IMG/VR virus record: IMGVR_UViG_3300028883_000041
Location: 1 to 64,000 of that record
DNA length: 64,000 nt
Strand: one strand, 5' to 3'
DNA from: a virus
Each line of letters starts with the position of its first letter. Position 1 is the first letter of the stretch. Below the pieces are notes generated by a model. It searched no databases. It was not told the DNA's origin and saw nothing but the letters and a program-made list of their open reading frames with translations. Below are positions 38,227 to 64,000 of this stretch, one piece after another. The position numbers were made by a program, and so were the translations under genes.

Positions 38227-38227
38227 T

Positions 38228-38926: not shown

Positions 38927-38931
38927 TTATA

Positions 38932-41696: not shown

Positions 41697-41739
41697 CTGT
41701 TATGGTAATTATATAAAGCAATATAATAACTTTATGCTT

Positions 41740-41976: not shown

Positions 41977-42014
41977 GATAAAAAAGTAGAAAGAGGGATA
42001 TAAGAACTTTATGC

Positions 42015-42392: not shown

Positions 42393-42432
42393 GAATAAAA
42401 AAAGGAAGGGAAGATATTTAAACCTTTTGACA

Positions 42433-42906
42433 CTATGAACCAGATAATGTTTCGTCATAGAGATAGTAGATTACAATTGGTCCATCACCTTCATAGAGAG
42501 TGAAAGTGGTTATCTCATCTGGATAATGATTGATAAGGTGTTCAAGACCAGTTTTATTATATTGACCAATAAATCTAATCTTAACATTCTCATCATCTGG
42601 TGTCCAAACCATAGCCTCTATCTTATCATTATTATCTATCAAATTCTGAACATAATCAACGATATCTCCTATAGTGTTACTACCAGAAGTATAAGGATAA
42701 ATCAAGTCTAACCATCCCCTAATACTTTGAACAGCATAACTATATATCTCTGAGTATTGGTTGATAAGCCAATCTAATTGACCTTTACTATAACTTCCTT
42801 TAGAAGTAATTCTGATATTACTACCAGTCCATAGTCCTATGGCTTCTAAATCTTGAGCCTTTATCAAGTTTTGAACAGTTGTTTCTATTTCGCCTAATGT
42901 TGCCAT
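42433..42906 (-). CDS. Protein with two tandem MATL domains
   Basis: TLGEIETTVQNLI / TIGDIVDYVQNLI; QLDWLINQY / GLEHLINHY. Confidence 0.75.
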   Translation of the reverse strand: MATLGEIETTVQNLIKAQDLEAIGLWTGSNIRITSKGSYSKGQLDWLINQYSEIYSYAVQSIRGWLDLIYPYTSGSNTIGDIVDYVQNLIDNNDKIEAMVWTPDDENVKIRFIGQYNKTGLEHLINHYPDEITTFTLYEGDGPIVIYYLYDETLSGS

Positions 42907-42914
42907 TTAATCAC

Positions 42915-46681: not shown

Positions 46682-46682
46682 C

Positions 46683-49600
46683 TTATACCATCCTTTTCCA
46701 ACTTAAAGGCAAATTCTCTGATAATGAAGACCTTTGTAAAAATGTCGATAATTGTCTTGTAATCACATTGTCTTCATCAAAAGGCATGTTACTGTTAATT
46801 GGGTCATCTACTAAATATATTTTACTCATGAACCCACTTGTTGTTCCGAAGTTACCGATATATTGAACATGTCTATAAACAAACCATCTTACTACCTCAT
46901 TCTCTTTTGCAGTATTTAGTTTAACAATATCATCATCTATAAATGCAGACCCTTCTCCATTATTTTCTAAATCTCTTATATACTTTTTTTCATTCAACAT
47001 AGAAGTAAATTCTTTAGTCTTTCCAATAGCAGCACTCGCTATACTGACTACTCTATCTGTATCAATAATATCTACTGGTGCTACTCTTTTAGACAATTTT
47101 TCTAAGTAATAGTTTGCAAATCCTTCTCTCTTTTCTTGTAAAAAGATGGTATCACCAACTTGTATATTAGGTCTGGCTCCCATATATATTGAACCATTTC
47201 TCCCTTGCATTGTAGCCAATTCTATTAACATTGTCTCTACTGTTTTACAAGTCATCTCTATTATTCCAAATATTAAAGCTACCATAAACTTTTTTATTGG
47301 TATTGCTTTTTGTGTGATGTTTCTAACAAATTCATAATATGGTTCTTGACCAACTTGATAATCTGATATTTCAGTTGCATTATACTTTACAACCTCTGAT
47401 AAAAATCTCAACGTGTCATCTGCATCATCTAAATATTGATATATACTTTTCATCACTTGGGTTACAGCATTAAGACTGCTTTTTCCTATTGACTTAGCAG
47501 TTAGGTAGGTGTTTTTGATATGATAATCAATGTCTTTACTTACACCAAATACAGTTTGACCTATACTTTCTAAACTACTATCTGATAGAAAATCTTGACA
47601 CATCTCAAAGAACTCATTATAACTATATTTTTCTTTTAGTTGGAATGTTTTACTGCTACTATATTTGATATTGAATGTACCAGTTTGTTTTATTTTCTCA
47701 CTGATGGGAACAGCTATAGAAGAAAAAGAACCAAATAAACCATTGAGATTGAATTCTAATTCAAAGGTTTTAGGGTTAATACCATAAGAATTAAGAGTAT
47801 CGGTAATAGGATTATTAGAAGTGACAGATACCCCTTGTGTGTATGATAACATGTTATCTACTTTTTCTCTTAGTTCTAAGTAATAACCATCTTCCAAAGA
47901 TACAGAAGAAGTATTAACTGTTGACTCTTTATAATCTACTAAAGGTTTTTGTGTTTCAAAAACAACCATCTTAGGAACATTAGAATAGATGTTGTTCTTC
48001 GTAGAAAAATTATTTTTTAAAGACACAGACATTATAGGAGCAGAATTAACATCATCTGGGTCCACTAAATGACATTCTGCTATCTGTCCTCTTCTGTTTA
48101 CCTCAAAGATATCTATTTCAGACACCTCATCAAGATAAAGTTTGTGTTTTCTATCTGGAACTAATAAATTACCAGCAGCATCTCTCCCACTAAATGTAAA
48201 TAATAAGCATATAACTATTCCAGTTCCTTTCTTTCTATTTGGAACATCTTGGTTAATGAACATATCAGATTTAACCCATAAGTTCTTTGAAGCATCACCA
48301 TAGATAATCTTGTTAATATAGATAAAATTACTTAGATACATATTAACAAAATCTATTATTGATGGTGTGTTAAAGGTTGTATCTAACTCTGGTCTGGTAT
48401 AGAGGTCCAACTTATCTGGCGTCCATCTCTCACTTGTTCTAACATTAAGAACATTAGTTAATGCACGAGCAAGAGGTATAGTTCCAGAAGCTTTACCACT
48501 TTTATCATCTAAATAAAGATAAAACTGTTCTGCTTTTCCCCCCTTATCTGCTACTAAAAATGATATCTTACCAGAACCATCTTTCTTAATCTTACCAAAT
48601 AAATTCATGATTATCTTATCAAAAGAAATAAGCAGTTTATCAGTCTCATTTTCTTGTACTCTTCTTGTTTCAGCAAACACCCTATCACCAAAAGCAGCAA
48701 AAAATCTGCTTGAAGTTATCATAAATTTTTTCATGGTTCTTCCTCTATTATCTGGGTCATCAACCTCTGTTGCTGGAAGAACACTGGTAGTCATACCATT
48801 ATTAATACAAAACTTTACTGCTTTTGATATGGTTGTTTGCCATAAAGTATTTTTATCATAATCTTTTAATGTATAAGCTTCGTTATTATCGTTATCTTCT
48901 TTCTTGATACCATAATTAATTTTAAGATGTTGGAACATTCTTGCTGGGTCTTGAGCATTCATCCTTAACTGAGTAGAACCTCCCATATGAAGGTTTTTAA
49001 CTGTAATAAACCCAGAAAAATGAGGTCTGTCTCTCTCTATTCTGGTAGTAAATCTACTCTTCTTAATCTTCTGTTCTTTTTCTCCAGACTTACATAACGT
49101 ACCTATTAAAGAGGTATTTGTAATAGAAACGTTTTGAAGATTTGTACCAATCTTCTTTTTTGTTAAGAAGTCTTTAACTCCTACAGCATATTTAACATCT
49201 TGATTATACATCTCATAAAACAATAACTTTGAAGCAGCAAAATCCGCTCCAGATATAGCAGCAGAAGCCAAAGTTTTAGAAAGGTTCTGCGTCCAAACGA
49301 ATATCACATCATCTGTTCTAACTATCTTATAAAGTAATCTTTCATAATCAGAAAAAGTTATTTCTATTTTAACACCGTATCTCGAACTTTCATCAATTTG
49401 AACACCAAGAAGAGTATTCTGTTCATAAGAATTTGTAAAAGGATTTGATACCAAGTTCTTGCTTAAATATCTCATAGATTTATCTGGTTCAGTTACAGCA
49501 CCTACAGCTTCATCTTCATGAAGTCTTGTAAGTTCTTCTTGGCTTAATACTTTTGTATCAACTTCAAACTTATAATAAGGTTTGAGGTCAACAAACTTGA

Positions 49601-49721
49601 ACATACCTTTTTCAGTTCTTCTCCATATTTCAACAGCAACAATAACATGTTGTTCATTATCGAAATTGAATTTAAGAACTTCTGATGATGTTGGTTGTAA
49701 AAACTGAGAAAGGTCTGACAT
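46683..49721 (-). CDS. Putative baseplate hub protein
   Basis: Synteny; HFSGFIT...MNAQD and GARPNIQVGDTI resemble gpD/gp27-like hubs. Confidence 0.55.
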   Translation of the reverse strand: MSDLSQFLQPTSSEVLKFNFDNEQHVIVAVEIWRRTEKGMFKFVDLKPYYKFEVDTKVLSQEELTRLHEDEAVGAVTEPDKSMRYLSKNLVSNPFTNSYEQNTLLGVQIDESSRYGVKIEITFSDYERLLYKIVRTDDVIFVWTQNLSKTLASAAISGADFAASKLLFYEMYNQDVKYAVGVKDFLTKKKIGTNLQNVSITNTSLIGTLCKSGEKEQKIKKSRFTTRIERDRPHFSGFITVKNLHMGGSTQLRMNAQDPARMFQHLKINYGIKKEDNDNNEAYTLKDYDKNTLWQTTISKAVKFCINNGMTTSVLPATEVDDPDNRGRTMKKFMITSSRFFAAFGDRVFAETRRVQENETDKLLISFDKIIMNLFGKIKKDGSGKISFLVADKGGKAEQFYLYLDDKSGKASGTIPLARALTNVLNVRTSERWTPDKLDLYTRPELDTTFNTPSIIDFVNMYLSNFIYINKIIYGDASKNLWVKSDMFINQDVPNRKKGTGIVICLLFTFSGRDAAGNLLVPDRKHKLYLDEVSEIDIFEVNRRGQIAECHLVDPDDVNSAPIMSVSLKNNFSTKNNIYSNVPKMVVFETQKPLVDYKESTVNTSSVSLEDGYYLELREKVDNMLSYTQGVSVTSNNPITDTLNSYGINPKTFELEFNLNGLFGSFSSIAVPISEKIKQTGTFNIKYSSSKTFQLKEKYSYNEFFEMCQDFLSDSSLESIGQTVFGVSKDIDYHIKNTYLTAKSIGKSSLNAVTQVMKSIYQYLDDADDTLRFLSEVVKYNATEISDYQVGQEPYYEFVRNITQKAIPIKKFMVALIFGIIEMTCKTVETMLIELATMQGRNGSIYMGARPNIQVGDTIFLQEKREGFANYYLEKLSKRVAPVDIIDTDRVVSIASAAIGKTKEFTSMLNEKKYIRDLENNGEGSAFIDDDIVKLNTAKENEVVRWFVYRHVQYIGNFGTTSGFMSKIYLVDDPINSNMPFDEDNVITRQLSTFLQRSSLSENLPLSWKRMV

Positions 49722-50234
49722 CTAAAAAGCCACCTCTAATGGATACTTTATCACTGGAGGAATTCTTAATACTTCATATAACTCTAAAGTATATTTATAG
49801 ACCATTCTTTCATCTCCAGACTGTTCCCAACTCATCTTATCTATAGTTACAAAAGCCATATCTAAATCTGCTTTCATAAATATAGGAGAATCGTAAGTAT
49901 AAAGATACTCTATGAAATACTTTACTGCTCTTGCATCATAGGAAAAGAAGAACCAAGCCTTTTCCCCTCCAACACCAGCAAGACCTTTGAAATATCTATT
50001 CCATTTTCTAAAGAGGTTCTCAAAATTGAGTTCTCCTTTGATTACAAACTTAGTACTTTTTGTACCGAACTTTTGTCGGATAGAGCCTATCCTACCTATT
50101 GGATTTAACTCATTCACCCTTTTTTCATATGTCCCTTGCCAGAAATTGGCTTGTGGGTCTATAAGAAAAACTGGTGGTACATAAAGTAGAACTTTTCTTG
50201 AAACTAATGATTTTAATGTATCTATCGTTGACAT
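49722..50234 (-). CDS. Tail tube initiator (gpU-like)
   Basis: Position after tape measure; RQKFGTKSTKFVIKG...YKYTLELYEV. Confidence 0.55.
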   Translation of the reverse strand: MSTIDTLKSLVSRKVLLYVPPVFLIDPQANFWQGTYEKRVNELNPIGRIGSIRQKFGTKSTKFVIKGELNFENLFRKWNRYFKGLAGVGGEKAWFFFSYDARAVKYFIEYLYTYDSPIFMKADLDMAFVTIDKMSWEQSGDERMVYKYTLELYEVLRIPPVIKYPLEVAF

Positions 50235-50236
50235 TT

Positions 50237-51577
50237 TTATTCTTCACCTATATCATATTCTGGATTAATCGCAAATCTTTTTGTAGTATTGATATTAAAC
50301 TCTTTTTCAACACGTGTTATACCTATTGCCATACCCTTTGCTGCTGTAGATACTCTACCTAATTTGTTTTGTAATGAAGCGAAATCTGAAGACCTATTCA
50401 AGAAGTCACTTATTGTACTGTATAGTTCCCCTTGCTGTCTCCTCATCTCTCCTAAATTGAAATCTATAGTCAATAAATTATCTAATTTTAACTTACTAAA
50501 CAATCCATCGACAACACCAGTTATCACTTTATTTGATAGTCCTTCTTGGTCTATGGTTGCAGTAATCACTCCTCCAGAAGATGAACCACTTCGAGATGGA
50601 GTAGAAGCAGTTGAAATAGAAGACTTAGAACCCATCTTATCTAACAAACTTTCTATGACTGTATCTACCATAGTATATGACTCAGTAAAAGCATTTGGGT
50701 CTGGAGCTTCAGAAGTTCTTGTCCTTAATTCTCCTACAAACATTTCTTCTATAGCACTTCTTACCTCTGGTTTTTTAGATGCTTCTTCAAATGATAAACC
50801 ATTAGCTCTTGCATATTGTGTTATCACATATTCAGCATCAGATAAATTTTTACCCATATGTTTAGCAACCATATCTGGTCTAAGCTCTGGGTTTGGTAAT
50901 GATGAGAGGTATCTTGAGCTGTAGTATCTTTCCACTTCTAATGCTTTTGATTCTTGTGGTCCTCCAAACGACTTCATGATATTAGATACTTCGTTATTAA
51001 GATATTCAAATACAGATAACATATTTGGAGAATCCTTAACCAAAGACAACAAATCTCTTGTTTGGTTTTGAGCATTTTTACTTCCTTTAATTTGTGGGAA
51101 TAAATCATTTAATTTAGAAAGAAACATTAATGATTTGTCCATGATTTCTGACCACTTATCTGGGTCTTGTTCAAATCCTACACTTCTAATCATGGCTTCT
51201 AAATTATTCAAATACTCAAAAGGACTTACACCACCAAACACTGTTTCACTAATAACATCTTTGTTTATTTTTAGTCTTGCTAACTGGTTTCTTGTTTGAT
51301 TGATAGCAGTCTGTGTTTGGAGAGTAGGAGCAGAAGAAGAATATTTAGTACTGGTTAAGAGACTATAGTTCATCTTTACATATTCTTTTATTTCATGTAA
51401 CAAATCCCAGTTCCCACCAACTTTACTAACACCTCCTTCACTCATAGAATTAACTGCTGTAGTAAAATTGTTTTTAACAGTATCACTAAGAGCACCAAAA
51501 TCACTAAAAGCCTTATAGATTTCTGACATGTTAGTTATTTCAGCTTGAGCACTTAGTTTGATATTTAGTTCAGCCAT
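50237..51577 (-). CDS. Putative short tape measure protein
   Basis: Helical; directly follows the frameshifted chaperone gene. Confidence 0.6.
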   Translation of the reverse strand: MAELNIKLSAQAEITNMSEIYKAFSDFGALSDTVKNNFTTAVNSMSEGGVSKVGGNWDLLHEIKEYVKMNYSLLTSTKYSSSAPTLQTQTAINQTRNQLARLKINKDVISETVFGGVSPFEYLNNLEAMIRSVGFEQDPDKWSEIMDKSLMFLSKLNDLFPQIKGSKNAQNQTRDLLSLVKDSPNMLSVFEYLNNEVSNIMKSFGGPQESKALEVERYYSSRYLSSLPNPELRPDMVAKHMGKNLSDAEYVITQYARANGLSFEEASKKPEVRSAIEEMFVGELRTRTSEAPDPNAFTESYTMVDTVIESLLDKMGSKSSISTASTPSRSGSSSGGVITATIDQEGLSNKVITGVVDGLFSKLKLDNLLTIDFNLGEMRRQQGELYSTISDFLNRSSDFASLQNKLGRVSTAAKGMAIGITRVEKEFNINTTKRFAINPEYDIGEE

Positions 51578-51755
51578 TATAAATCACTTTCATATTGTTC
51601 TACACACTCACTAATAAAAAGGATTTCTGTCCAATTCATTCTTATCAGTTCTCGGAGAGGAAGAGAGATTTTCTTTGACAGAGCATAAAGAAATCTACCC
51701 ACATTTGTATGTGCTAATTTTCTAATTTCTTGCTCTCCGAGTGCTGAGAAAAAGA
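51577..51755 (-). CDS. -1 frameshift extension of the tail assembly chaperone (GT-like)
   Basis: The -1 frame from TCT TTT TCT is open to a TAA overlapping the TMP ATG: FSALGEQEIRKLAHTNVGRFLYALSKKISLPLRELIRMNWTEILFISECVEQYESDL. Confidence 0.7.
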
Positions 51756-52115
51756 GATTTCTTCCACAGCACTGATTAGTGATTGTTGCATACCAAGAGG
51801 CATCATATCTACTTCTTTATAACTCAAAGGACGACCATCTGTAGTTGTTACCAACTTGGTTATCATATGTTTATACCGTTCTAACGGAGTGTTGAACATT
51901 TCTAATTCTAATTGTATTGCAACAGTAAGAGGTTTGACTATGAAAGACATCCCATCATCAATATCATCATAAATAATATTAACAGTAACTTCTTTGGCAT
52001 CAAGTATTTGCTGAAGTTTTTCTATGATGTTTTCTTTCTTAATTTCTCCCACAGCTTTTTTTAATTCACCAATAGTAGTGATAACTTCTTTCTGTCGTTG
52101 TTCTTCTTCTTCCAT
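51714..52115 (-). CDS. Tail assembly chaperone
   Basis: Between tube genes and TMP; FIVKPLTV...EVDMMPLG; frameshift extension. Confidence 0.7.
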   Translation of the reverse strand: MEEEEQRQKEVITTIGELKKAVGEIKKENIIEKLQQILDAKEVTVNIIYDDIDDGMSFIVKPLTVAIQLELEMFNTPLERYKHMITKLVTTTDGRPLSYKEVDMMPLGMQQSLISAVEEISFSQHSESKKLEN

Positions 52116-52153
52116 GGGAGGTAGTTATCAGAACTAATATTTAGATGTTTCTG

Positions 52154-52738
52154 TTAGAGGTGTCTTAAAGAACTATCAATAAGAGGAAGGTTTGATGCGT
52201 TGGGGAAAGACCTTTCTGTATATTCTTTAACATCTAAAGCAGTAAAACTTAGTGTCTCAGCCATAAATTGACCTTGATTAATACCACCTTCTACAGAAGT
52301 TGGAGTAATTCTTGAAAACACATATCCTTTCCCTACCCCTTGAGCATAAAACCTTAACCTAACATCACTAAAAGGTATAAGTAACTCTCCTACATTATCA
52401 AAACCACTACCAACTTGATGTTTCAAATCATAAGTTCCAAGAAGAAGTTTTGTTCCAATGTCTATATAATCAAAATTAGCACTTGAGTGTTTGATAACCA
52501 CAGAAGATAACTGTCCTTCTGCTGATAGATTGTTTCTAAAAATGTCTGAACCTAAAGGATTATCATCTCCTATAGCACGATAAGTTCTTGTGTTCCAAAC
52601 ATATCTCCAAGAAAGCTTGTCTGCAAACCCTATTGGAAAGTTTTGAAATAGAAACTCATCATCTCTCTGTCCTTTAACTGTTAGAAATATTGCTACATCA
52701 TCAGCATGAATAGTATTATTTTGTGTTGAATAACTCAT
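52154..52738 (-). CDS. Tail tube-like protein 2
   Basis: PIGFADKLSW...YRAIG...MAETLSFTALDV. Confidence 0.65.
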   Translation of the reverse strand: MSYSTQNNTIHADDVAIFLTVKGQRDDEFLFQNFPIGFADKLSWRYVWNTRTYRAIGDDNPLGSDIFRNNLSAEGQLSSVVIKHSSANFDYIDIGTKLLLGTYDLKHQVGSGFDNVGELLIPFSDVRLRFYAQGVGKGYVFSRITPTSVEGGINQGQFMAETLSFTALDVKEYTERSFPNASNLPLIDSSLRHL

Positions 52739-52776
52739 TATGAATAAAAAAAGGATAAGAAGATTAAAAATCTTTC

Positions 52777-53355
52777 TTATGGATGAGAAGTTATTGAGGA
52801 AGATGGGTTACTATAACCGAATTCACCTTCCATTTCAATTATGGTGAAGTCCCCTTGACCAATATCTTTTGACCTTCTGGTAAAGATACAATCGTGTAAT
52901 GTATCTTCGAACCCAGTTCTTAGGTTTCTTATCTGGATAGTAAATCTTAAAGGAGCAACATATTTACTTGGGTCATCCGCAGTACCAGCACCATGCATTT
53001 CTGGAGGAGTAACTGTTCCAGCACTAATAGCATCGGAAAGCAATGAATTGACATCAGATGTCCCTTCATTCATTCGAGCACCTAATGCTTGTTGTATCAA
53101 CCGCATGTTGATGGCAGTAGCTCTAAATCTGCATCTGAAGACACCTCTATAGTTAGTTGTTCGAGCATCAACTCGAAACTTAGTTCCGATAGCTCTTACT
53201 TCTCTTAACTCTTCACTGTCTTCATATCTGATACTGTCTAATCTTCCAAGAGTATATTCTACTAAATCATTAGTTAGATTATCTCCACCAACAACGAGCA
53301 TCTTGAGGATTATATCGTCCCCAAATTCTGTATTATAATAGTTTAGATTTGACAT
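52777..53355 (-). CDS. Tail tube protein
   Basis: Immediately after sheath; LGRLDSI...EVRAIG...FTIQI...LHDC. Confidence 0.7.
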   Translation of the reverse strand: MSNLNYYNTEFGDDIILKMLVVGGDNLTNDLVEYTLGRLDSIRYEDSEELREVRAIGTKFRVDARTTNYRGVFRCRFRATAINMRLIQQALGARMNEGTSDVNSLLSDAISAGTVTPPEMHGAGTADDPSKYVAPLRFTIQIRNLRTGFEDTLHDCIFTRRSKDIGQGDFTIIEMEGEFGYSNPSSSITSHP

Positions 53356-53361
53356 TTTTTA

Positions 53362-54657
53362 TCACCCTATTTGTAATGTTGCTGTAAGATTTATCACTAT
53401 CTTCAGTGTCTCAAAGACTGGTGTCACATCAACTTGACATCTCATAATGTTGTTTGCTTCATCATTAGCAGAAGCATACACATTTGCAGCAAATGCTTTA
53501 ATCATCCCTTGTCTCTTTCTATCAGCAAGTTTAGTTTCTATCGAAGTTTTCGCAGAAGCTCTTGTACTTGAAGTGTTAGAACTGAACAAGTATTGTCTCA
53601 TAATGTTTCTTGCATCTTTTGCAATCGTATCTAAGATTTGTCTTGTAGTTATCAATGTTACATCTGCAGCTGAACTTGCAGTAAACGTCCAACCTTTGTC
53701 GTAAGACCAAGTACTATTTGTACCATTGGTCCATCTTCTTGGAAATATCACGTGGTCTCCCCACATGCTTTCCAATGTTGTCTTACCAAATATATGTAAG
53801 TTTTCATCACCTTTGTAAGAAGGCGACCATCCAGTAATATAACTCAGTGGAGTATGAGCATCTTGGCTTGATAATCTTCCAGCAACATAAGCTGCTAAGA
53901 AGTTTCCACCTATTTCATGTGTTCCACTTGCGAAAGTTGTATAATCTTTCAGATGTGTATCTGTAGTTTCAGTAGAACCGCTTGTTGCAGTAAATTTATA
54001 GGTTGTATTAGCAAGAAGACATATCACTCTTCCAGTATCGCTTTGTTGAGTATCAGCAGTTGGGAATGAATATGTATATGAAGAACCACTCAATGCTCTT
54101 TGCAAAGAAGTTCCAGTAACATAAACCCTTTCTTTACCTTCTGAAGCTGCTGAAGCAGCAACTACTTCTGTTACGACAGCTGCTATTGGATTAGCACCAG
54201 CCACAACCAAATAATAAACATCATCGAATGCTCTTAAAGCTGATAAAGCTTCTGAAAGACCAGTTGGTGATGTTTCAGCGTCAGTTCCAGTTCCACTAAG
54301 AACACAACCATAAACTTTTTTAGCACCACCAGCAAAAGCTAATTCTACTGCTCTCATAAAGTTATGGTCTGGGCAATAAGGAGAGTCGCTTGTAGCACCT
54401 AAATCATAAGTTCCACTTGACCAATTGGTACCTAATGCAATTCCCATCTTATTCTTATAATCAACAAGTGAGTCATATACAAAAACTGTCCCAGTATTAC
54501 CAGTTGTAAATAAATCACTGTCTGCTACATCATAATCTGAACTACCAGATGCCATATGTCCTATGACAGCAACATATCGACCAGTATCTAATGGGCTGGG
54601 TCTGATATCGTCTGTGGTTTGTTCCACATAAACACCAGCTAAAGTATATTCGCTCAT
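53362..54657 (-). CDS. Contractile tail sheath protein
   Basis: LAGVYVEQ N-terminus; AFAGGAKKVY; LAAYVAG; ITTRQILD...VDVTPVFETLKIVI. Confidence 0.88.
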   Translation of the reverse strand: MSEYTLAGVYVEQTTDDIRPSPLDTGRYVAVIGHMASGSSDYDVADSDLFTTGNTGTVFVYDSLVDYKNKMGIALGTNWSSGTYDLGATSDSPYCPDHNFMRAVELAFAGGAKKVYGCVLSGTGTDAETSPTGLSEALSALRAFDDVYYLVVAGANPIAAVVTEVVAASAASEGKERVYVTGTSLQRALSGSSYTYSFPTADTQQSDTGRVICLLANTTYKFTATSGSTETTDTHLKDYTTFASGTHEIGGNFLAAYVAGRLSSQDAHTPLSYITGWSPSYKGDENLHIFGKTTLESMWGDHVIFPRRWTNGTNSTWSYDKGWTFTASSAADVTLITTRQILDTIAKDARNIMRQYLFSSNTSSTRASAKTSIETKLADRKRQGMIKAFAANVYASANDEANNIMRCQVDVTPVFETLKIVINLTATLQIG

Positions 54658-54690
54658 AAGCTATTCTCTACATAATGAGTATAAAAAGAT
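54658..54690 (-). promoter_or_regulatory. Late-type promoter conserved with 61191-61222
   Basis: CTACATAATGAGTA at 54668-54681 and 61202-61215, both preceded by AAGCTA next to the start codon. Confidence 0.65.
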
Positions 54691-54695
54691 TATTA

Positions 54696-55442
54696 TCAAC
54701 TTCCACTCTCTGTACCAGACCAAGAAAGTGTTCCGCTCTCGGTATCAACACTTTCTAAGACCCCAGAACTGGTTTGATAGACTTCTATAGGAACTTCTCC
54801 TACAAGATAACCATCTGAACCACTTCCAGTTGGAGGAATAAACCTTACTTCAGTTGTAATCAATAAATCAAGATATCTACGATAGACCATGGTCGCACCA
54901 TTATGATGAGCTACATCTTTAATAAATCTATCAGCATCATCATATCCTATAAGGTCACTACTAACAGTTTTAACTTGTTTAATACCTAAATCATAAAGAG
55001 TATTAGACTGTGGAGACTTATACCAATTAAACAGATTATCTATTTTACCAGACAAAGAGTCTCTCATCCATGGGTCCTTAGCCCAAGAGTCACATCTGAC
55101 AATGTAGATTTTTTCATGACCGTATACTGTATCATATGAACCAGAAGAAGCAACCCCACCACCACTATTTACATATTCAAAAAGAAAGTTACCTATATAC
55201 TCACTCATCTCTCTTTGCCCTTGGACACTAACTACAATAGTAGGAAGTTCCATATTCTCTGCTGTAGGATAATCACCATAACAATTAATTGTTGTTTCTG
55301 TACCAGAAGTACCTAATGATATAGTTCCAATATTAGTCCTTATGAAGTCAACTATATGTGCTTTAAGAGTATCTGTATCAAATAAATAACCATCTTTAGA
55401 CGATAATACTGAACCGCTATAACTTTCCCATGTCCAAGTCAT
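54696..55442 (-). CDS. Tail terminator / neck protein
   Basis: Upstream of sheath; YPTAENMELPTIVV, CDSWAKD...RDSL. Confidence 0.6.
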   Translation of the reverse strand: MTWTWESYSGSVLSSKDGYLFDTDTLKAHIVDFIRTNIGTISLGTSGTETTINCYGDYPTAENMELPTIVVSVQGQREMSEYIGNFLFEYVNSGGGVASSGSYDTVYGHEKIYIVRCDSWAKDPWMRDSLSGKIDNLFNWYKSPQSNTLYDLGIKQVKTVSSDLIGYDDADRFIKDVAHHNGATMVYRRYLDLLITTEVRFIPPTGSGSDGYLVGEVPIEVYQTSSGVLESVDTESGTLSWSGTESGS

Positions 55443-56952: not shown

Positions 56953-57303
56953 TTATTGTTTGTCTTTAGGCACAAGTTTATCTTCGATATCTTGTTTATC
57001 AAATTCAGTTACATCTTCAAAGTTGTTATTTGCTGAGTAGTGTTTAGGTAACAATCCTATGAAATCGTCATCCCATACCACATCTTGAGCATGACCTACA
57101 ACACGAGTAAAACCGAGAACTACTTGTTCTCTTATCCATTCACCTTGATGTAAATCAAACTGTCTTTGTAACTTTATATGTTGAACACCATTAAGGTCTT
57201 CTATACCAACAAATTGCATGAGTTTTACAATTCTTTGGTCTAAACCAACATCATCCAACTCTTCAGTTTCTTCTTCTAACTCTTCAAAATCATCCTCTGT
57301 CAT
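56953..57303 (-). CDS. Acidic hypothetical protein
   Basis: Coupled to the GT4 gene. Confidence 0.65.
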   Translation of the reverse strand: MTEDDFEELEEETEELDDVGLDQRIVKLMQFVGIEDLNGVQHIKLQRQFDLHQGEWIREQVVLGFTRVVGHAQDVVWDDDFIGLLPKHYSANNNFEDVTEFDKQDIEDKLVPKDKQ

Positions 57304-58417
57304 CAGTAATCACATCCGCAAGTTTCTTGGCTGCTGATTTCCAAGTCCATTTCTTGACATCTTTTAGCCCTTGAACTGACCTCTTCTTTCTTCCTTCAAC
57401 ATCATCAACAACTTTTCTCATTATATTACGAATATTCTTTATTGAAGGTTTAGCCCAATAAAGCCCTTGGTTTCTATCGTAAGGACCTCTACCATCAGTG
57501 ATATCCATTGTTTCTGGTTTAATGATGTAGGAGTTCTTAGTATTCATATATTCCAATTGACCACCAAACTTTTGTGTGATACATGGAACACCACAAGCCA
57601 TAGATTGAATATAGGGTAATCCCCAACTCTCACCTTTGCTTGGTAATATGAACGCATTAGCAGAGTTATATAATCTTCTCATATTAGGTTCAGTTAGCAT
57701 CTGACCATTGATTACAATTTTTGGAGGGTTCTTATTCTTGAATTGAAAGGTTCTGGTTTTGATAGCATTAGTTATTCCTAACATAGTTGAGAAATTATTA
57801 TCCATACCATATGTTTTTAACATTAACACTACTTTATCATCTCCAGTAAATTCTTTAAGATAAGCATCTACAAGTTCTTCAAACCCTTTTCGTTTAATCC
57901 ACTGACCTACAGCCAAAAATACGAAGTCATCACCAAAGTCAAATAATTTGTCTTTATCTGGATAGAATATAGAAGTATCTATACCATGAGGAACTATATG
58001 AATTGGTCTGGCATCTGGACCTTTTTCTGTTATGGCTCTTTCTATAGAGTCTTTACAAAACTTAGTATTTGTTATGAACTCATCATAAAGGGTGAGCTCT
58101 TTCTTCCATAGAGGAGGTAAATCAAGTAATTCCCAAACAAACATGAGTATGTTTCTATTGTGGTCTGGAGGAGACCTATCAAATACTACTGGAGTTCCAT
58201 ATCTTATATAAGGAACTGTTTTATCAGAAGTCTTAGCAAACATATCTTGGAATATCGCTGCTTGGTCTGCTGGTAATCTAATTATTAAATCATCCATTTT
58301 TCTTTCTTGAAGATGAACATCTAATCCTTCTTCATGAAGACCTAACACCATTTTTCTGGCTGCATAAGCATAACCAGAAGGAGATAATACTGTTGTTTCT
58401 ATTCTTACATCAACCAT
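57290..58417 (-). CDS. GT4 family glycosyltransferase
   Basis: SGYAYAAR, VPHGID, RKGFEELV, LPSKGESWGLPYIQSMACGVPCI. Confidence 0.92.
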   Translation of the reverse strand: MVDVRIETTVLSPSGYAYAARKMVLGLHEEGLDVHLQERKMDDLIIRLPADQAAIFQDMFAKTSDKTVPYIRYGTPVVFDRSPPDHNRNILMFVWELLDLPPLWKKELTLYDEFITNTKFCKDSIERAITEKGPDARPIHIVPHGIDTSIFYPDKDKLFDFGDDFVFLAVGQWIKRKGFEELVDAYLKEFTGDDKVVLMLKTYGMDNNFSTMLGITNAIKTRTFQFKNKNPPKIVINGQMLTEPNMRRLYNSANAFILPSKGESWGLPYIQSMACGVPCITQKFGGQLEYMNTKNSYIIKPETMDITDGRGPYDRNQGLYWAKPSIKNIRNIMRKVVDDVEGRKKRSVQGLKDVKKWTWKSAAKKLADVITDDRG

Positions 58418-59749
58418 TTACATCACCAACTCTATATTGGTATTAACTTTTTCAAATAAGTCAATCCACATCTTATTTACTACCGTCCAATCATAATGAC
58501 TGACTGCCCAATCACGAGCATTTTTACCATGTAGTTTTCGTAGTTCTTCATCTTTCCAATATTTCTGGAAAGCTTGAGCCATCTTCTTAACATCTATCCA
58601 AGCCTTTCTAACTCCACATCTTTCCATATAAGCAGTTACATAAGGAACAGCAATTCCTCTTTGTTCTTCTTTAGGAACAACTTCTTCATTATCACCAAGA
58701 AGTAAAAACTCTTCTGTGGTTGTATAATTGGTTGCTACTGTTGGAAGACCACAAGCCATGCCTTCTACTATAGGAATTCCAAATCCTTCTCCACCAGTTG
58801 ATAGAGCATGAACGTCAAAACAATTATATAACAACGATAAATCTTGTGGGGGTATCCCTTCTAAGAAATTATATTTTTTTCTGGATTGATTTGATGCTGG
58901 AGTAATGATAACGTTCTCTCCTATTCCTCTACATTCAATCTGCTCTAAGAAGAAATAATCGTGGTTAGCATCCCCTATATATAATGGGTCTTTAGCATCT
59001 AAATGAAGATAGAGATAACAAGTTTCTTTCTTCAACTTTTTCTCTTCTTTACTTCCAGCATTCATAAACATCCTAAATGCTTCAAGTAATCTCATATGAT
59101 GTTTTCGTTTATTCAATCTGGCTACGCAACCTATAATGAACATATCTTTAGGGTCTGTTTTAAACTTCATACCATATTCACCAAAGAATGCTTGTCTTGC
59201 TGCTAATTTGTTTATAGGACTAAATATAGATGTATTTATACCATGGGGTACATATTCTGCATCAATTTTAAGTTGTTCTTTAGTAAGTTTTTGACCATAT
59301 TTACTCATTGCTATTGGAACATCAACAGCCATTAGAACTGACTCTATCATACTGTTGATTGGGTCTCCATCAAGAGGATAATATAACATCCAAAAAGGTC
59401 TTGGTTGTCTTGCTAATACATCAACCATATGAGCATCCCCTTGAGTAAAGAGAACATCTGGAGCTATTTCATGAAATACGTCTTGATAACTATCCTTACC
59501 AAACATAGCATTTCCTCTCACTCCATGAACTTTATAGTTAAATCCAGAAATTGGAGGATTGCCTCTTGTTTGCCATCCTAAATAATGAGTATCCCAATTG
59601 AAGAACTTAGATACTGTATTAGCTATAGTTCCACATTGTATAGCAAACCCAGTAGGATAGTAAGGGCTATCAGAAGCAAAAAGTATAGTTGGTCTTCTTC
59701 TATTCAACTTAATTTCGGTTTTTGTCTCTATATCTACTTTTTTTGACAT
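58418..59749 (-). CDS. GT4 family glycosyltransferase
   Basis: PTGFA, VPHGIN, ARLNKRK, STGGEGFGIPIVEGMACGLP. Confidence 0.92.
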   Translation of the reverse strand: MSKKVDIETKTEIKLNRRRPTILFASDSPYYPTGFAIQCGTIANTVSKFFNWDTHYLGWQTRGNPPISGFNYKVHGVRGNAMFGKDSYQDVFHEIAPDVLFTQGDAHMVDVLARQPRPFWMLYYPLDGDPINSMIESVLMAVDVPIAMSKYGQKLTKEQLKIDAEYVPHGINTSIFSPINKLAARQAFFGEYGMKFKTDPKDMFIIGCVARLNKRKHHMRLLEAFRMFMNAGSKEEKKLKKETCYLYLHLDAKDPLYIGDANHDYFFLEQIECRGIGENVIITPASNQSRKKYNFLEGIPPQDLSLLYNCFDVHALSTGGEGFGIPIVEGMACGLPTVATNYTTTEEFLLLGDNEEVVPKEEQRGIAVPYVTAYMERCGVRKAWIDVKKMAQAFQKYWKDEELRKLHGKNARDWAVSHYDWTVVNKMWIDLFEKVNTNIELVM

Positions 59750-59793: not shown

Positions 59794-60330
59794 CTAACTC
59801 ATTGGCTTTGTTGGGTCAGTCTCACCAGTCTCTGAATAAGGCTTTCTAACAATCTTTAATAAAGTATAAACTTTCTGACCAAATGAACCGTATTTTGTTT
59901 CGTTTAGCATTATATCATATTCGTACCTTGTATAATTGGTATCAATAGGAAAAATGATTATGTCACCAACTGCAAAGTTATCGTGTTCCCAGCCATAAGT
60001 CCATAACCGATGAGTATAACGTTGAACTAAACCAGCTGGTGTCACATAATCACCTACTCCACTTCTTCCAGTAGGAGGTATTTGCTCTACGTAAGCTTTT
60101 ACTTTTCGTTCAGATGATGTCCCCTCAGTAAAGATAAATCCAGACCCATTACATACAGAACAAGTAGAATTAGGACGACCATATAAACTATTCCAACAAG
60201 TACATTTAGTAGCACTTTTTTTAGACCTATGAATGACATCTTGTCCTACATTAGTTAAGATATGTCTCATATAATAGTCATCAATAATAGGAACATGAGG
60301 TGTTCCCATAGTCCATTGTCTAAATGCCAT
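59794..60330 (-). CDS. Putative head-closure / neck protein with Zn finger
   Basis: Start MAFRQW; KCTC...CSVCNGSGF; position in morphogenesis module. Confidence 0.55.
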   Translation of the reverse strand: MAFRQWTMGTPHVPIIDDYYMRHILTNVGQDVIHRSKKSATKCTCWNSLYGRPNSTCSVCNGSGFIFTEGTSSERKVKAYVEQIPPTGRSGVGDYVTPAGLVQRYTHRLWTYGWEHDNFAVGDIIIFPIDTNYTRYEYDIMLNETKYGSFGQKVYTLLKIVRKPYSETGETDPTKPMS

Positions 60331-60332
60331 AG

Positions 60333-61190
60333 TTAAACACCATCTCCAGCAAGGTTCATCCCTTGTACCCAACCACTATAAATGGTCTGGTCGCTTGTTA
60401 CATATATCCTACCACTATCAACAAAGATTGCTGCTTGATTAAGAGTAACTCTGTTAGAACTAAGAGGAAAGCTTCTGGCATAATAAGGTTTAGAACCAGA
60501 ACTCCTATCGATAATAACGACTGGAGCTTGGTCATATGCCAATTTCAGTATGTTCTTTAAATTATTAACTTTATCTTCATACATTCTAAACAGTTCTCCC
60601 ATAGACATACCTTCTCCCCAAAGTTTGGTTTGAACTCCTAATTCTCCAAGATTATAACTAAACCCTCCTTGGATAGCATTAGAACTGTTTAATGCTAATA
60701 TCGAATATTTGACAGCAATAGCATATACTAATAAAATAGCAAGTTGTTCAACGGTATCAGTTGTTGTTAAATCATAATCCCATGTCATATCAAATTCATG
60801 ATTGACTTCTTGTTTTGCTGACTCTAATTCCATCAATATTTGACTATTAGTAAGTCCAGCTTCATAACGATAGGTACATCTTACCTTCTCACCTATCACA
60901 ACATTTGCACCAGAAGCAAGAATAACTTGTCCAGTGTTCTCAGTAAAATCAGAACCACTGGTTGTATTATAATAATTACTACCAGAATGTGTCAAATCTG
61001 TATGTTCCCAAATTCCAGCAACACCTCCAAGGGGAACATTAAAAACATATATCTCATACCCACTTGAACCAGAAAAAACTACTTGTAATTCATCTTCAAT
61101 AGTCGGACTTTGCACTACCCCAGCTTGTGTTAACATATCCCTTACGTTGCTAATATGGTCAGCGTTTTCTGTCGTGCTTAAGAAACTCAT
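60333..61190 (-). CDS. Putative head-tail adaptor
   Basis: GFSYNLGELGVQ...YEDKVNNL adaptor-like tail; SG[ST] motifs; shares promoter with sheath. Confidence 0.5.
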   Translation of the reverse strand: MSFLSTTENADHISNVRDMLTQAGVVQSPTIEDELQVVFSGSSGYEIYVFNVPLGGVAGIWEHTDLTHSGSNYYNTTSGSDFTENTGQVILASGANVVIGEKVRCTYRYEAGLTNSQILMELESAKQEVNHEFDMTWDYDLTTTDTVEQLAILLVYAIAVKYSILALNSSNAIQGGFSYNLGELGVQTKLWGEGMSMGELFRMYEDKVNNLKNILKLAYDQAPVVIIDRSSGSKPYYARSFPLSSNRVTLNQAAIFVDSGRIYVTSDQTIYSGWVQGMNLAGDGV

Positions 61191-61229: not shown

Positions 61230-62213
61230 TTAAATTCTTGTTTTTCCGTTGACTTCAAAACCACAGTTTTTGAACGTAACTTTTCCACCATTTAACCAAG
61301 TAATAACCTTATCAAAATCATTTTCATCAACATTCATGACAGATACCTTATCATTAGCATCAATCATAGCAAGACCTCTTCCAGCAATAATAAAATTCCA
61401 TGGTCTAATATCTGTAGCATGTTCATATTTCAAATCTCTAAGTAACTTTTCTATGTTAGCAACATATGGAAAAGTTCCATTGAACACCATAAAAGTATAA
61501 AGATTTATACCTTTAATCCATACTCTTTTTCTACCATCTTGATGATGATAATGTTTATGTTTCCATGAAGACTCAATACCAACCTTACTTCTTAGATGAG
61601 GAGGACAGTTGTAATATCTTTTCTTCATTCCATTCTTAATAGTAGTTATCATATAGATAGGTCTTTTTCCCCCTTTGGTAACATGAGAGTCTCCTTCTCC
61701 TATTTGTTCTACTTTACCATAGAATAAATCTGGATTTATCTTAACAACTTTATGAGGATTACAAGCATTGGTAGTATTAGGAAGCTCAATAATTAGCCTA
61801 TCTCCAAGAGCAGACATTTCATTAACAACATCATTAGGGTCTCCATCTATATGATGAACTACACTCATTGCTAACACTACATCAAAATGTTCTATCTCAG
61901 ACAAAACTTTAATTTTGTATAAATCCATATGGGTTTGTAACAATATGATATTATTCAAATCGTTTCTTACAGCAAGATTTTGTAATTGTTTTCCATAGAA
62001 ATTTGGAGACTCAATCATAACTACAGAACTCATTGGATAATCTTCTGCTATCCTAAATGAGAAGTAACCAAGATTAGCACCTATGTCTAACACAGTAAAA
62101 CTCCTCTCAAACTTATCAAGAACCTTTTTTATTACTTGATACCTTTTCTCACACTCTCTTACACCTTTCTTTTCCAATTTTCCTTTAACCCATATATCTT
62201 GATATTGTTCCAT
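61230..62213 (-). CDS. WbdD-like SAM methyltransferase with C-terminal kinase-like motifs
   Basis: YQDIW...RECEKR, VLDIGANLGYFS, FDVVLAMSVVHHI, HATDIRPWNF...MID. Confidence 0.75.
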   Translation of the reverse strand: MEQYQDIWVKGKLEKKGVRECEKRYQVIKKVLDKFERSFTVLDIGANLGYFSFRIAEDYPMSSVVMIESPNFYGKQLQNLAVRNDLNNIILLQTHMDLYKIKVLSEIEHFDVVLAMSVVHHIDGDPNDVVNEMSALGDRLIIELPNTTNACNPHKVVKINPDLFYGKVEQIGEGDSHVTKGGKRPIYMITTIKNGMKKRYYNCPPHLRSKVGIESSWKHKHYHHQDGRKRVWIKGINLYTFMVFNGTFPYVANIEKLLRDLKYEHATDIRPWNFIIAGRGLAMIDANDKVSVMNVDENDFDKVITWLNGGKVTFKNCGFEVNGKTRI

Positions 62214-62971
62214 TATATTCCTAACTCCTTATACCATGTTTTTATGTTCTCACCAGCAATAATATCTGCTTTTGTTCTCATTTCATCAGTCCAGTTTTCT
62301 ATTGAAGGATAGATATACTTATTAGCCCAGCTATCATATTTCTTTATAATCAAATCACTGAAATCATAATCTATACCTATAAAAATGTTAAATAATAACA
62401 TATCAGTGTAAGGAGGATTGAACATATCTTCCATCTTTAATAACATCATAGGTATAGTCTTTGCAAACTCTTGAGCAACATTTAAATATTTATTCCATAT
62501 CCAAAGAGCTTTCATAAATGCTTGTTTTTTAGTTCTATCTCCTTTTTTCCACCACTGTGTTGCTGGGTCATCTTTAAACAGAAACGGACTTAATCTATCT
62601 GTTACTATACTTTCTTCTGTGTTCTTAGTAGTATATCTTGTAGCAAATGAACGGACAAAATCTACTGGATTTCTTATGATATAAACAATCTTAGATTCTG
62701 GATAACAATCATGAATAATATCAACGATTGGTGTAAAAGCCCAGTTACTCTCAAAGTAATGTTCTGCATTTCCTCTTATCTTTTCTGTTCTATCCTTAAA
62801 GATTTTAGATAACTCATCTCTTGTTATCTCTCCTTTGTAATATGAAACTATATTATGTCTCAGTCTTGGATGTGGTTCATGTTTTCCAAGATAATGAGTG
62901 TTCTTATTAATGTTATGTGCTAACCAACCAGTACCAGTTCTACCAGTCGATACCACAAATACTTCTACCAT
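62213..62971 (-). CDS. PAPS-dependent sulfotransferase-like protein
   Basis: VFVVSTGRTGTGWL (5'-PSB loop), HEP, KIVYIIRNPVDFVRS (3'-PB motif). Confidence 0.82.
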   Translation of the reverse strand: MVEVFVVSTGRTGTGWLAHNINKNTHYLGKHEPHPRLRHNIVSYYKGEITRDELSKIFKDRTEKIRGNAEHYFESNWAFTPIVDIIHDCYPESKIVYIIRNPVDFVRSFATRYTTKNTEESIVTDRLSPFLFKDDPATQWWKKGDRTKKQAFMKALWIWNKYLNVAQEFAKTIPMMLLKMEDMFNPPYTDMLLFNIFIGIDYDFSDLIIKKYDSWANKYIYPSIENWTDEMRTKADIIAGENIKTWYKELGI

Positions 62972-62990: not shown

Positions 62991-63644
62991 TTATTTTACG
63001 AATACTTCAATCATAGACAACCTATTTAGAAGGTGAGGACTATCTACCCAATATGGTTTCATATCAACTATTCTATAATCATGTCCCCACTTGTGACAGA
63101 TTTCTTTCATATCTTTTTCAGAATAAAAGAAACTTAAAGGAGGTTTAAAAAAGCCCCATGGTTTGGTCTTTTTACCTATCCACACAGTAACAAATACTTT
63201 TGTTGTAGGCTTCATAATCTTCCATAGATTCTGGATAAATTCTTCAAACATAGCAATAGGATTGTGGTTCAATACAGACACCGCTATAATGTAATCTACT
63301 TTTGGTAGATAATCAAAGCCGAAATCAGTATTAATATAAAACTCTGCTATCTCTTGCTTATTTCCTACTAATACCTTTCCAGCTTCTATGGCTTCTGGAC
63401 ATATATCTACACCTACATAACTTCTACAACCATAGTCATATACCTTATCTAATAATGGTAAAGTCCCACAACCCAAATCTAACAGAGAGTGTTCTGGTTT
63501 AAAACCATTATCTTTTAACAACTGTAAAATCTTCTTAGAACCAACATCCCATGAATAAGTTGATGTTCCAGCAGACTTGGGGTCTATTGCAACTTGCTCC
63601 TTCATGAATTCAGCATAATTATTTATGTGCTCATCATGTGTCAT
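62991..63644 (-). CDS. Class I SAM-dependent methyltransferase
   Basis: LLDLGCG, YVGVDI, DYIIAVSVLNH. Confidence 0.85.
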   Translation of the reverse strand: MTHDEHINNYAEFMKEQVAIDPKSAGTSTYSWDVGSKKILQLLKDNGFKPEHSLLDLGCGTLPLLDKVYDYGCRSYVGVDICPEAIEAGKVLVGNKQEIAEFYINTDFGFDYLPKVDYIIAVSVLNHNPIAMFEEFIQNLWKIMKPTTKVFVTVWIGKKTKPWGFFKPPLSFFYSEKDMKEICHKWGHDYRIVDMKPYWVDSPHLLNRLSMIEVFVK

Positions 63645-63682
63645 GATAACATTTAAATATTTCTAACTTTATTAATCTTTTG

Positions 63683-64000
63683 ATGACTAAACTTAAGATA
63701 GCAGTACCAGCTATACATAAATCACGATTAAGACAAATAGCACGAACTGGTCATGAGATATATTACTTTGATGACGATAGAGAAGTAGAAAAGGGTTATA
63801 ACTCAATATTCGATGAGTTCACCAAAGAATTAAACAACATAGAATTCATAGCAAAAAACGATTTTGTTAATAACCCAACAAAATATGATTTAATAATATT
63901 GCCTAATCAAGCATCTATGCATGAGTTTAGTAGTTATAGTAATTTGCCTAAAGCTTTTATTTGGACTAATGTATGTGATATAAATGATAAGGTAAAAAAG
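63683..64000 (+). CDS. Partial ORF, possible glycosyltransferase N-terminus
   Basis: MTKLKIAV...ARTGHEIYYF...YDLIIL, open to the window end; GT-B-like start. Confidence 0.5.
   Translation, partial: MTKLKIAVPAIHKSRLRQIARTGHEIYYFDDDREVEKGYNSIFDEFTKELNNIEFIAKNDFVNNPTKYDLIILPNQASMHEFSSYSNLPKAFIWTNVCDINDKVKK

Follow-up and report, generated by a model that had tools for sequence, protein, structure and literature searches.

A short viral relative of the O-antigen terminator WbdD that may cap virus-made glycans with methyl phosphate

The window examined here is a 64,000-nucleotide stretch of viral DNA (positions 1 to 64,000 of the IMG/VR record IMGVR_UViG_3300028883_000041), and near its end it carries an uninterrupted, ATG-started open reading frame (ORF) of 327 amino acids (aa) on the minus strand at 61230..62213, with its stop codon at 61230-61232. 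This ORF encodes a tailed-virus relative of WbdD, the enzyme that terminates bacterial O-antigen chains, and it derives from an environmental metagenome. The product is a short form in which a WbdD-like methyltransferase is followed by a mini-kinase, and it is a short variant rather than a WbdD orthologue. Our preferred explanation, which we consider to be probably correct, is that the protein adds first a phosphate and then a methyl group to the end of a virus-made glycan that is itself probably carried on the virion. All coordinates given below are those of the window and its minus strand unless stated otherwise.

A first-pass annotation of this gene had likened its product to WbdD on the basis of a handful of short motifs, and every one of these was verified by translation: YQDIW, RECEKR (62142-62159), VLDIGANLGYFS, LAMSVVHHI, HATDIRPWN (61395-61421), and MID, whose Asp is D285 at 61359-61361 when the coordinates are re-derived and translated. 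The resemblance itself proved to extend far beyond chance. When the single sequence was used as a query, the best match in the Protein Data Bank (PDB) was WbdD, but the match was weak (E 0.0065) and was accompanied by a subthreshold second stretch at the kinase catalytic loop. We gathered 180 full-length relatives, 56 of which were aligned to form a family profile. This profile retrieved four WbdD entries of the PDB at E 7e-22, compared with 2.6e-5 for the next methyltransferase, and it again placed a second, collinear stretch on the WbdD catalytic loop.

For comparisons between profiles, the reference WbdD gene was taken from the O9 locus of E. coli HS, where it lies between wzt and wbdA, and it served as the seed of a 16-member WbdD alignment. 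When matched to this family by hhalign, the viral profile gave a probability of 99.6% and an E value of 7e-25 over 281 aligned collinear columns. Viral residues 1-291 correspond in unbroken order to WbdD residues 13-375, up to the DFG-type Asp of the kinase. This continuous two-domain alignment was obtained with the default column handling of hhalign, whereas the '-M first' setting split the alignment and reported the methyltransferase domain only. An AlphaFold (AF2) model of the whole protein has a predicted local distance difference test score (pLDDT) of 94 and a predicted template modelling score (pTM) of 0.93. When this model was searched with Foldseek, five WbdD entries ranked first, and only WbdD entries aligned across both domains. 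WbdD is thus the top match by structure, by sequence profile, and by comparison of profiles, and homology to WbdD in both halves of the viral protein is close to certain.

Curated libraries recognize only a generic class I methyltransferase that covers residues 1 to ~170, and they return no match for the C-terminal 135 residues. The Pfam matches of the ORF are at or below the family cut-offs, and PHROGs labels it simply as 'methyltransferase'. The NCBIfam matches to CmoB score 34 bits, where the cut-off is 209, and a role in tRNA modification was rejected because the scores fall so far under this threshold.

The first half of the protein (residues 1-192; 61638..62213) is a class I S-adenosylmethionine (SAM) methyltransferase domain of the WbdD type, as assigned from VIA-align, the hhalign residue map, and conservation. 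VIA-align superposes this domain on WbdD with Z 16.1 and a root-mean-square deviation of 2.6-2.8 A over 187-190 residues at 24% identity, whereas Z falls to 13.3 and identity to 16% for the next methyltransferase. In WbdD, the phosphate that receives the methyl group is bound by R203, H132, and H133, and the Y16F, H132A, H133A, and R203A variants each abolish phosphate methylation while the kinase remains active (PMC3482155). A further feature is an anion pocket unique to this enzyme, whose lining includes R31, C33, R36, and H197 (PMC3482155).

All eight of these positions are aligned by hhalign with its highest confidence to identical residues of the viral protein. The WbdD residues Y16, H132, H133, and R203 correspond to viral Y4, H120, H121 (H120/H121 at 61851-61856), and R184 (61662-61664). 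The pocket residues correspond to R19, C21, R24 (the R19-x-C21-x-x-R24 segment at 62142-62159), and H177. Among 219 family members, conservation is 99% for Y4, 99% for H120, 91% for H121, and 68% for R184, and it is 93% for R19, 89% for C21, 96% for R24, and 93% for H177. The phosphate-binding Arg at the R184 position is replaced by Ser in 23% of the family. Of all the observations, the retention and conservation of the phosphate site and the anion pocket speak most strongly for a phosphate as the methyl acceptor.

The second half of the protein is considerably shorter than a full kinase domain, as the first-pass annotation had noted. The ~135 aa after the methyltransferase domain compare with a kinase of ~250 aa in the 708-aa WbdD. 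In the domain model, residues 193-310 (61284..61637) form a minimal protein-kinase-like domain, a reading reached through Foldseek, VIA-align, and hhalign as well. The predicted topology comprises three N-lobe strands, a hinge (G235-I-N237-L), a helix, the catalytic loop, two strands, the metal-binding Asp, and one helix. When residues 191-327 were modelled alone, the same topology was obtained with a pLDDT of 85.

Searches with the C-terminal domain were uniform in their outcome. Kinases accounted for all 50 of the top 50 Foldseek matches, with WbdD first and OspG and NleH2 among them, although the individual E values are weak (0.08-0.4). VIA-align, which is independent of Foldseek and was run against 48,161 representative chains, likewise returned kinases in 50 of its 50 top matches, including Rad53, OspG, Rio1, Rio2, NleH1, and APH(3')-IIa. 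These matches align 103-130 of the 137 residues at modest Z scores of 5.5-6.5. It is the uniformity of the matches, not any individual Z score, that leads us to conclude that the C-terminal 137 aa, as modelled, is a protein-kinase-like fold. Language-model neighbors of this domain are the YrbL, WaaY, Kdo/InaA, RIO, and APH families, which are sugar or lipopolysaccharide (LPS) kinases of one clan, and with similarities of 0.78-0.84 they are used only as a lead. Profile comparison agrees: between the hinge and the metal-binding Asp, the C-terminal half taken alone aligns with the WbdD kinase at E 9e-8. Matches confined to tRNA or small-molecule methyltransferases, together with a C-terminus devoid of kinase resemblance, would have told against the first-pass reading, but WbdD heads the matches and the C-terminus resembles kinases.

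The residues expected to carry out phosphoryl transfer are largely in place. WbdD D351 is essential, with the D351A variant being kinase-dead, and N356 and D369 bind two Mg ions (PMC3482155). Their viral equivalents are D268 and N273 within the catalytic loop H265-A-T-D268-I-R-P-W272-N273 (61395..61421; WbdD H349..D351..W355-N356) and D285 (61359..61361), which both the profile and hhalign equate with the DFG Asp D369, a Mg ligand. In the 219 members, these three positions are conserved at 97%, 98%, and 97%, respectively, and the spacing of the two Asp residues is 17 residues, compared with 18 in WbdD. The hhalign alignment keeps a series of anchors in the same order in both families, each with little or no variation (viral residue first): W232=W305, G235=G313, H265=H349, D268=D351, W272=W355, N273=N356, and D285=D369. 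Y200=Y230 and, to within one position, K220=K252 are more tentative members of this series. G235, N237, and P249, which belong to the piece formed by the N-lobe and hinge, are 98-99% conserved.

The candidate for the ATP-binding Lys of strand beta3 is K220 (61554..61556), which aligns within one position of WbdD K252 and opens strand 220-223 in the model. The family has Lys at this position in 85% of members and Arg in 5%. Y200 (61614..61616) aligns with WbdD Y230, the acceptor-binding Tyr of the G-rich loop, which stacks with W355; the Y230F variant of WbdD is inactive (PMC3482155). However, alignment certainty is low in that stretch, and Tyr is found at the position in 64% of the family and Phe in 14%. 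A global or relaxed hhalign comparison of the C-terminal half alone gives a different N-lobe alignment at low confidence, and because the two N-lobe alignments disagree, the K220 and Y200 assignments are tentative. Nevertheless, the pattern of conservation suggests that the reduced core may bind ATP.

The surroundings of the gene point toward glycans. Immediately upstream is a 252-aa sulfotransferase (62213..62971; Pfam Sulfotransfer_3, Sulfotransfer_1, and Sulfotransfer_4), whose stop codon overlaps the start codon of the methyltransferase-kinase by one base in the sequence TAATG (62211-62215). This overlap suggests that translation of the two genes is coupled, and the methyltransferase-kinase ATG is preceded, at a distance of 11 nt, by an AAGGAG motif. 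A second, generic class I methyltransferase of 217 aa (62991..63644; Pfam Methyltransf_23, 1.7e-12) is the first gene of this same-strand run. On the other side of the gene are a 285-aa protein of unknown family (60333..61190) that has no Pfam, PHROG, or NCBIfam match, a 192-aa virion structural protein (59794..60372; phrog_1004, phrog_38102) that is interleaved with the glycan genes, and two GT4 glycosyltransferases of 443 aa (58418..59749; Pfam Glycos_transf_1 2.8e-15, phrog_2170 1.4e-30) and 375 aa (57290..58417; Pfam Glycos_transf_1 2.8e-13, phrog_2170 3.5e-32).

An NAD-dependent sugar epimerase/dehydratase (virus record 66693-67604, equal to L154:3693-4604) lies between the capsid gene and these genes and stretches the glycan island to ~10 kb. 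Thus, the order along the minus strand is portal, major capsid protein, epimerase/dehydratase, methyltransferase, sulfotransferase, and methyltransferase-kinase, followed by the 285-aa protein, the virion structural protein, the two GT4 enzymes, neck proteins, sheath, and baseplate. Three island genes lack a Pfam match, namely two ORFs of 339 and 330 aa that run from window 63680-64000 on into L154:680-2682, and one at L154:2663-3430. The 339- and 330-aa ORFs are on the plus strand, opposite to the rest of the island, and they lie between the epimerase and the methyltransferase. Among the genes scanned, which span 57-76 kb of the virus record, neither a Wzm/Wzt ATP-binding cassette (ABC) transporter nor a WbdA-type processive polymerase was found. 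The scanned region does include a hybrid protein with a response-regulator receiver and a histidine-kinase-type ATPase domain (L154:10892-11926; virus record ~73.9-74.9 kb).

Several proteins of the virus show a compositional peculiarity. The dipeptide Ser-Gly is in 2.5-3.6x excess over the expectation from composition in outer tail, baseplate, and neck proteins (window 36604-55442 and 60333-61190), and Ser, Thr, or Ala comes next after most of these dipeptides. The observed and expected counts are 19 and 5.3 in a baseplate wedge protein, 28 and 11 in a 949-aa fibre, 10 and 3 in a 248-aa neck protein, and 8 and 2.4 in the 285-aa protein. Almost none are present in replication proteins or in the glycan enzymes. 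This excess could mark glycan acceptor sites on outer tail proteins, although we treat it as suggestive only.

The record as a whole is an 85.6-kb linear IMG/VR entry that is estimated to be ~60% complete. Its viral nature is evident from genes for a terminase, portal, major capsid protein, tail sheath, and baseplate. The large terminase (window 34970-36601) shares only ~24% identity with that of any reference-collection phage, its best matches being from Thermus phages and a Methanobacterium virus, and the tail sheath has no relatives in IMG/VR. The virus is a representative of a deep, unplaced lineage.

Homologs of the methyltransferase-kinase are far more common than this single, uncultured virus might suggest. 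An exhaustive profile search recovered 3004 cluster representatives at E <=0.001, 1455 at <=1e-10, and 641 at <=1e-30, and of the best 150, nearly all span both halves. At least 60 IMG/VR contigs carry a full-length copy, and cellular copies are found in Nitrosopumilaceae, Babeliales/Dependentiae, Chlamydiota, Acidobacteriota, Chlorobi, a Methanobacteriota bin, and relatives of cable bacteria. The family is widespread in archaea and bacteria and is therefore not specific to viruses. Separately, the 401-aa Megavirus courdo11 protein K7YUZ4 in BFVD (labelled 'methyltransferase domain-containing protein') can be aligned to the full model across 318 columns and is possibly a family member with both domains.

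Genetic context across the family most often involves glycans. The family gene has a GT4 neighbor in ~34 of 80 viral loci and a GT8 neighbor in L008, and in a Desulfurivibrionaceae genome it lies within a NeuB/cytidylyltransferase/epimerase cluster. Most cellular homologs lie within surface-glycan clusters. The module is also found fused to GT4, GT2, or GT9 glycosyltransferase domains, to further methyltransferases, and to TPR repeats, and the resulting proteins can be as long as 2346 aa. DNA hypermodification had been entertained as a function and was set aside in view of these glycosyltransferase fusions and of the position of the window gene in a structural module.

Variant architectures provide additional clues. 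In the mycobacteriophages Tweety (L156:3486-5210) and LittleE (L155:3926-8323), a kinase of 167 aa is encoded by a gene of its own immediately upstream of the homologous methyltransferase gene, with glycosyltransferases adjoining. LittleE gp16 reaches the APH family threshold, and the alignment of Tweety gp102 with the family, at E 1.4e-4, begins at the hinge and extends to the metal-binding Asp. Three viral contigs have this type of methyltransferase fused to a nonhomologous, CTP-dependent riboflavin kinase domain (PF01982, E 2e-11 to 3e-13; L066:9380-10948, L069:9944-10924, and L074:9581-10906), which looks like a swap of the kinase partner as judged from domain matches. Together, the split genes and the riboflavin kinase fusions argue that a WbdD-like methyltransferase needs a kinase partner. 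Other members appear to be natural kinase-less forms. These truncated proteins from Gemmatimonadota (L123, L124, L130) and from Chlamydiota and Babeliales (L125, L138, L143, L145) keep the methyltransferase, the N-lobe, and the hinge motif 'G-I/V-x-L-x-T-F...G-x-Y-P', and they end before the catalytic loop. Their existence means that the piece formed by the N-lobe and hinge may also serve the methyltransferase side.

Taken as a whole, these observations are most readily accommodated by a soluble, ruler-less bifunctional enzyme. Its mini-kinase would use ATP and Mg via K220, D268, N273, and D285 to phosphorylate a sugar hydroxyl at the end of a glycan, with Y200 partly positioning the acceptor. 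The N-terminal domain would then move a methyl group from SAM to the phosphate, which would be held by R184, H120, and H121 together with Y4, and the product would be a methyl-phosphate cap. The acceptor is most likely a glycan that the two neighboring GT4 enzymes assemble, and that is perhaps sulfated as well, on virion proteins that are produced at the same time; this choice of acceptor follows from the location of the island between head and tail genes. We infer from the combined analyses the activity of the mini-kinase, the order of the reactions, the nature of the acceptor, and any arrest of chain growth by the cap. The first-pass proposal that the virus caps its own glycan chains is partly sustained, in that the protein is a WbdD homolog that keeps the kinase residues and is encoded in a glycan island, whereas the family to which it belongs is not a viral specialty.

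Several features weigh against such an enzyme. A deletion of ~41 residues relative to WbdD (~255-296 by hhalign) takes out helix alphaC, which in WbdD carries R270 and the Mg ligand E274, as well as strand beta4. Indeed, the model has no alphaC and no helix between strands 220-223 and 229-231. The Lys-Glu pair that joins beta3 to alphaC is absent, no Glu is conserved in the family, and the model shows no Gly-rich loop. A search for the ATP-binding Lys and N-lobe, which the first-pass annotation had suggested as a check, finds three N-lobe strands and a candidate Lys but neither alphaC nor a Gly-rich loop. The distance from the methyltransferase domain to the catalytic Asp has a family median of 94 residues compared with 154 in WbdD, which is ~60 fewer. 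Only 42 residues follow D285 in the viral protein (family median 31), whereas WbdD continues with ~90 C-lobe residues and then the ruler. The viral C-lobe consists of a single helix, with ~50-60 of the WbdD C-lobe residues gone, and the removal of C-lobe elements (the alphaQ-alphaR loop and the bundle helix) severely weakens WbdD activity (PMC3482155). The viral copy also has a peculiar one-residue insertion, T267, in its H-G-D motif (H-A-T-D). Moreover, neither Foldseek nor VIA-align can superpose the two-domain model on WbdD as one rigid body.

Other difficulties concern regulation and context. As the first-pass annotation had noted, there is no counterpart of the coiled-coil ruler, which together with the anchor occupies ~250 aa of WbdD. 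In the model, the longest helix after the methyltransferase domain has 10 residues, there is no coiled coil, membrane helix, or anchor, and the protein ends at residue 327. Lacking a ruler, a membrane anchor, and an ABC transporter, the viral system cannot control chain length in the manner of WbdD. Because ruler, anchor, alphaC, C-lobe, and transporter context were all looked for and each was found wanting, we do not call the protein an orthologue. In a quick tree, the viral copy groups (support 0.90) with the IMG/VR contigs L001/L002, L003, and L010 and with a small Methanobacteriota-binned contig. The genes next to it in L001 and L003 encode a C5 DNA methylase and an ArdC-like anti-restriction protein (the ArdC-like anti-restriction/metallopeptidase and C5 methylase loci are L001:4213-5226, L003:7778-8635, and L003:12502-13497), and no recognizable glycosyltransferase lies beside the gene in these two closest relatives. 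The link to glycans is therefore not universal, but it is still the dominant pattern of the family and is clear in the window.

Much of the structural erosion could be explained if the protein were a methyltransferase only, with a C-terminal domain that is a degenerate kinase remnant serving a structural or acceptor-binding role, and with a sugar hydroxyl or a phosphate supplied otherwise as the methyl acceptor. A parallel exists in O8-type WbdD, which has no kinase. The loss of alphaC with its Mg-ligand Glu, of the G-rich loop, and of most of the C-lobe would be expected under this explanation, and the HATD insertion and the Ser that replaces the phosphate-binding Arg in nearly a quarter of the family are also in its favor. 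Likewise, the truncated relatives in Chlamydiota, Babeliales, and Gemmatimonadota demonstrate that an N-lobe and hinge can exist without kinase chemistry. Even so, we consider a kinase-less function unlikely. It is hard to see why D268, N273, and D285 would be present in 97-98% of 219 diverse members, and K220 in 85%, if catalysis were not being maintained. The viral copy furthermore keeps the phosphate site (R184, H120, and H121), and this type of methyltransferase repeatedly recruits a kinase, even a nonhomologous one.

If phosphorylation followed by methylation does take place, the glycan could in principle belong to the host, so that cell-surface glycans are remodelled in infection, for example as a superinfection block or for receptor masking. 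The placement of the island between head and tail genes, where it is interleaved with structural genes as in LittleE, makes this target improbable in our view. Virion glycosylation has been shown experimentally in mycobacteriophages, according to the reports cited below, and the Ser-Gly excess in outer tail proteins could mark acceptor sites. These points must be set against the fact that most cellular homologs reside in surface-glycan clusters and that no feature of the protein ties it to virion proteins. A host-surface role has also been proposed for sugar methyltransferases of archaeal viruses (10.1101/2021.07.29.453957), which counts in favor of a host target.

A substrate other than a glycan, which would imply counter-defence or the modification of a small molecule, nucleotide, or DNA, is very improbable: the C5 methylase and ArdC-like neighbors of the closest clade, a Kinase-PolyVal family among the language-model neighbors, and the weak CmoB matches hint at it, but the CmoB matches fall far below their cut-off, the fusions are to glycosyltransferases and not to nucleic-acid enzymes, the gene sits in a glycan island, and it retains the specific WbdD active-site residues.

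A bolder form of the capping hypothesis can also be entertained, although we hold it only tentatively and suspect that some part of it will fail. In this form, the C-terminal domain would be an active sugar kinase of ~100-120 residues that operates without alphaC and would be the smallest protein-kinase-like enzyme known. Joined to the methyltransferase, it would constitute a widespread, ruler-less methyl-phosphate capping module of tailed and giant viruses, archaea, and bacteria, which in this virus would produce a capped and sulfated glycan coat on the virion.

To our knowledge, methyl-phosphate capping is established in only two bacterial O-antigen systems, both of which use large, ruler-bearing enzymes. 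A compact, soluble version appears to be spread over at least 641 sequence clusters, whose database label is only 'class I SAM-dependent methyltransferase' and whose kinase half has no family model. Should the mini-kinase prove to be active, the minimal catalytic core of the protein-kinase fold would be redefined, and glycobiologists would gain a small two-step capping tool. For virology, the hypothesis offers a specific and testable chemistry for virus-encoded glycosylation, in which methyl phosphate would add 94 Da to a glycan, possibly along with sulfate.

Among characterized systems, WbdD of E. coli O9a and Klebsiella O3 (PDB 4azs, 4azw, 4ax8, and 4uw0) is the closest. This bifunctional kinase-methyltransferase O-antigen terminator has the same order of methyltransferase and then kinase, is nearest to the viral methyltransferase domain in both sequence and structure, and has an identical phosphate site and anion pocket. 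The viral protein differs in being 327 aa rather than 708 aa long and in lacking the ruler, the membrane helix, and the region that recruits the polymerase. The WbdD locus encodes Wzm/Wzt and a polymerase, in contrast to the scanned neighborhood of the viral gene. Every terminator characterized so far is equipped with a membrane anchor as well as a coiled-coil ruler (PMC11231755). The N-terminal methyltransferase-kinase of Klebsiella O7 ORF6 is the second methyl-phosphate terminator to be demonstrated experimentally (PMC11231755). In common with the viral family, its kinase was missed by sequence annotation, and it is fused to glycosyltransferase modules, as are several relatives of the viral protein. 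By its description, it differs in having a 223-aa AmiN/APH-like kinase, a coiled coil, and a carbohydrate-binding module (CBM), and the kinase is reported to differ from WbdD in both sequence and structure (PMC11231755).

The bacterial effectors OspG and NleH1/2 (PDB 4q5h, 4bvu, 4lrj, and 4o96) are among the best structural matches to the mini-kinase, with Z scores of 6.4 and 5.6. These kinases resemble it in having no activation segment and no lower C-lobe. However, they keep alphaC, are 160-170 aa long compared with ~120 aa, act as protein kinases that depend on host partners, and have no fused methyltransferase.

The idea of a WbdD-like cap in viruses is not wholly new, because a 'WbdD' methyltransferase has already been annotated, in a preprint, in the Asgard-archaeal virus Fenrir and proposed to terminate mannose chains (10.1101/2021.07.29.454249). 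In the literature, we found no description of the reduced kinase half, the conservation of the phosphate site, the size of the short-form family, or the variants with split or nonhomologous kinases.

Perhaps the most instructive comparison is with the glycosylation cassettes of mycobacteriophages from cluster F (Che8/Tweety), cluster J (LittleE), and cluster O (Corndog). These contain glycosyltransferases and a methyltransferase that is 28-30% identical to the viral methyltransferase domain, and in LittleE the cassette is inserted after the capsid gene and ahead of the head-tail connector, which is the same placement as that of the viral island. The cassettes differ in that the kinase and methyltransferase are separate and in the opposite order, no sulfotransferase is present, and the hosts are actinobacteria. 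According to two reports (PMC12363180, PMC11600133), mycobacteriophages of clusters F, O, and C use their own enzymes to glycosylate capsid and tail-tube proteins. The split kinase and methyltransferase genes of these cultured phages provide a system in which the proposed capping chemistry can be tested directly.

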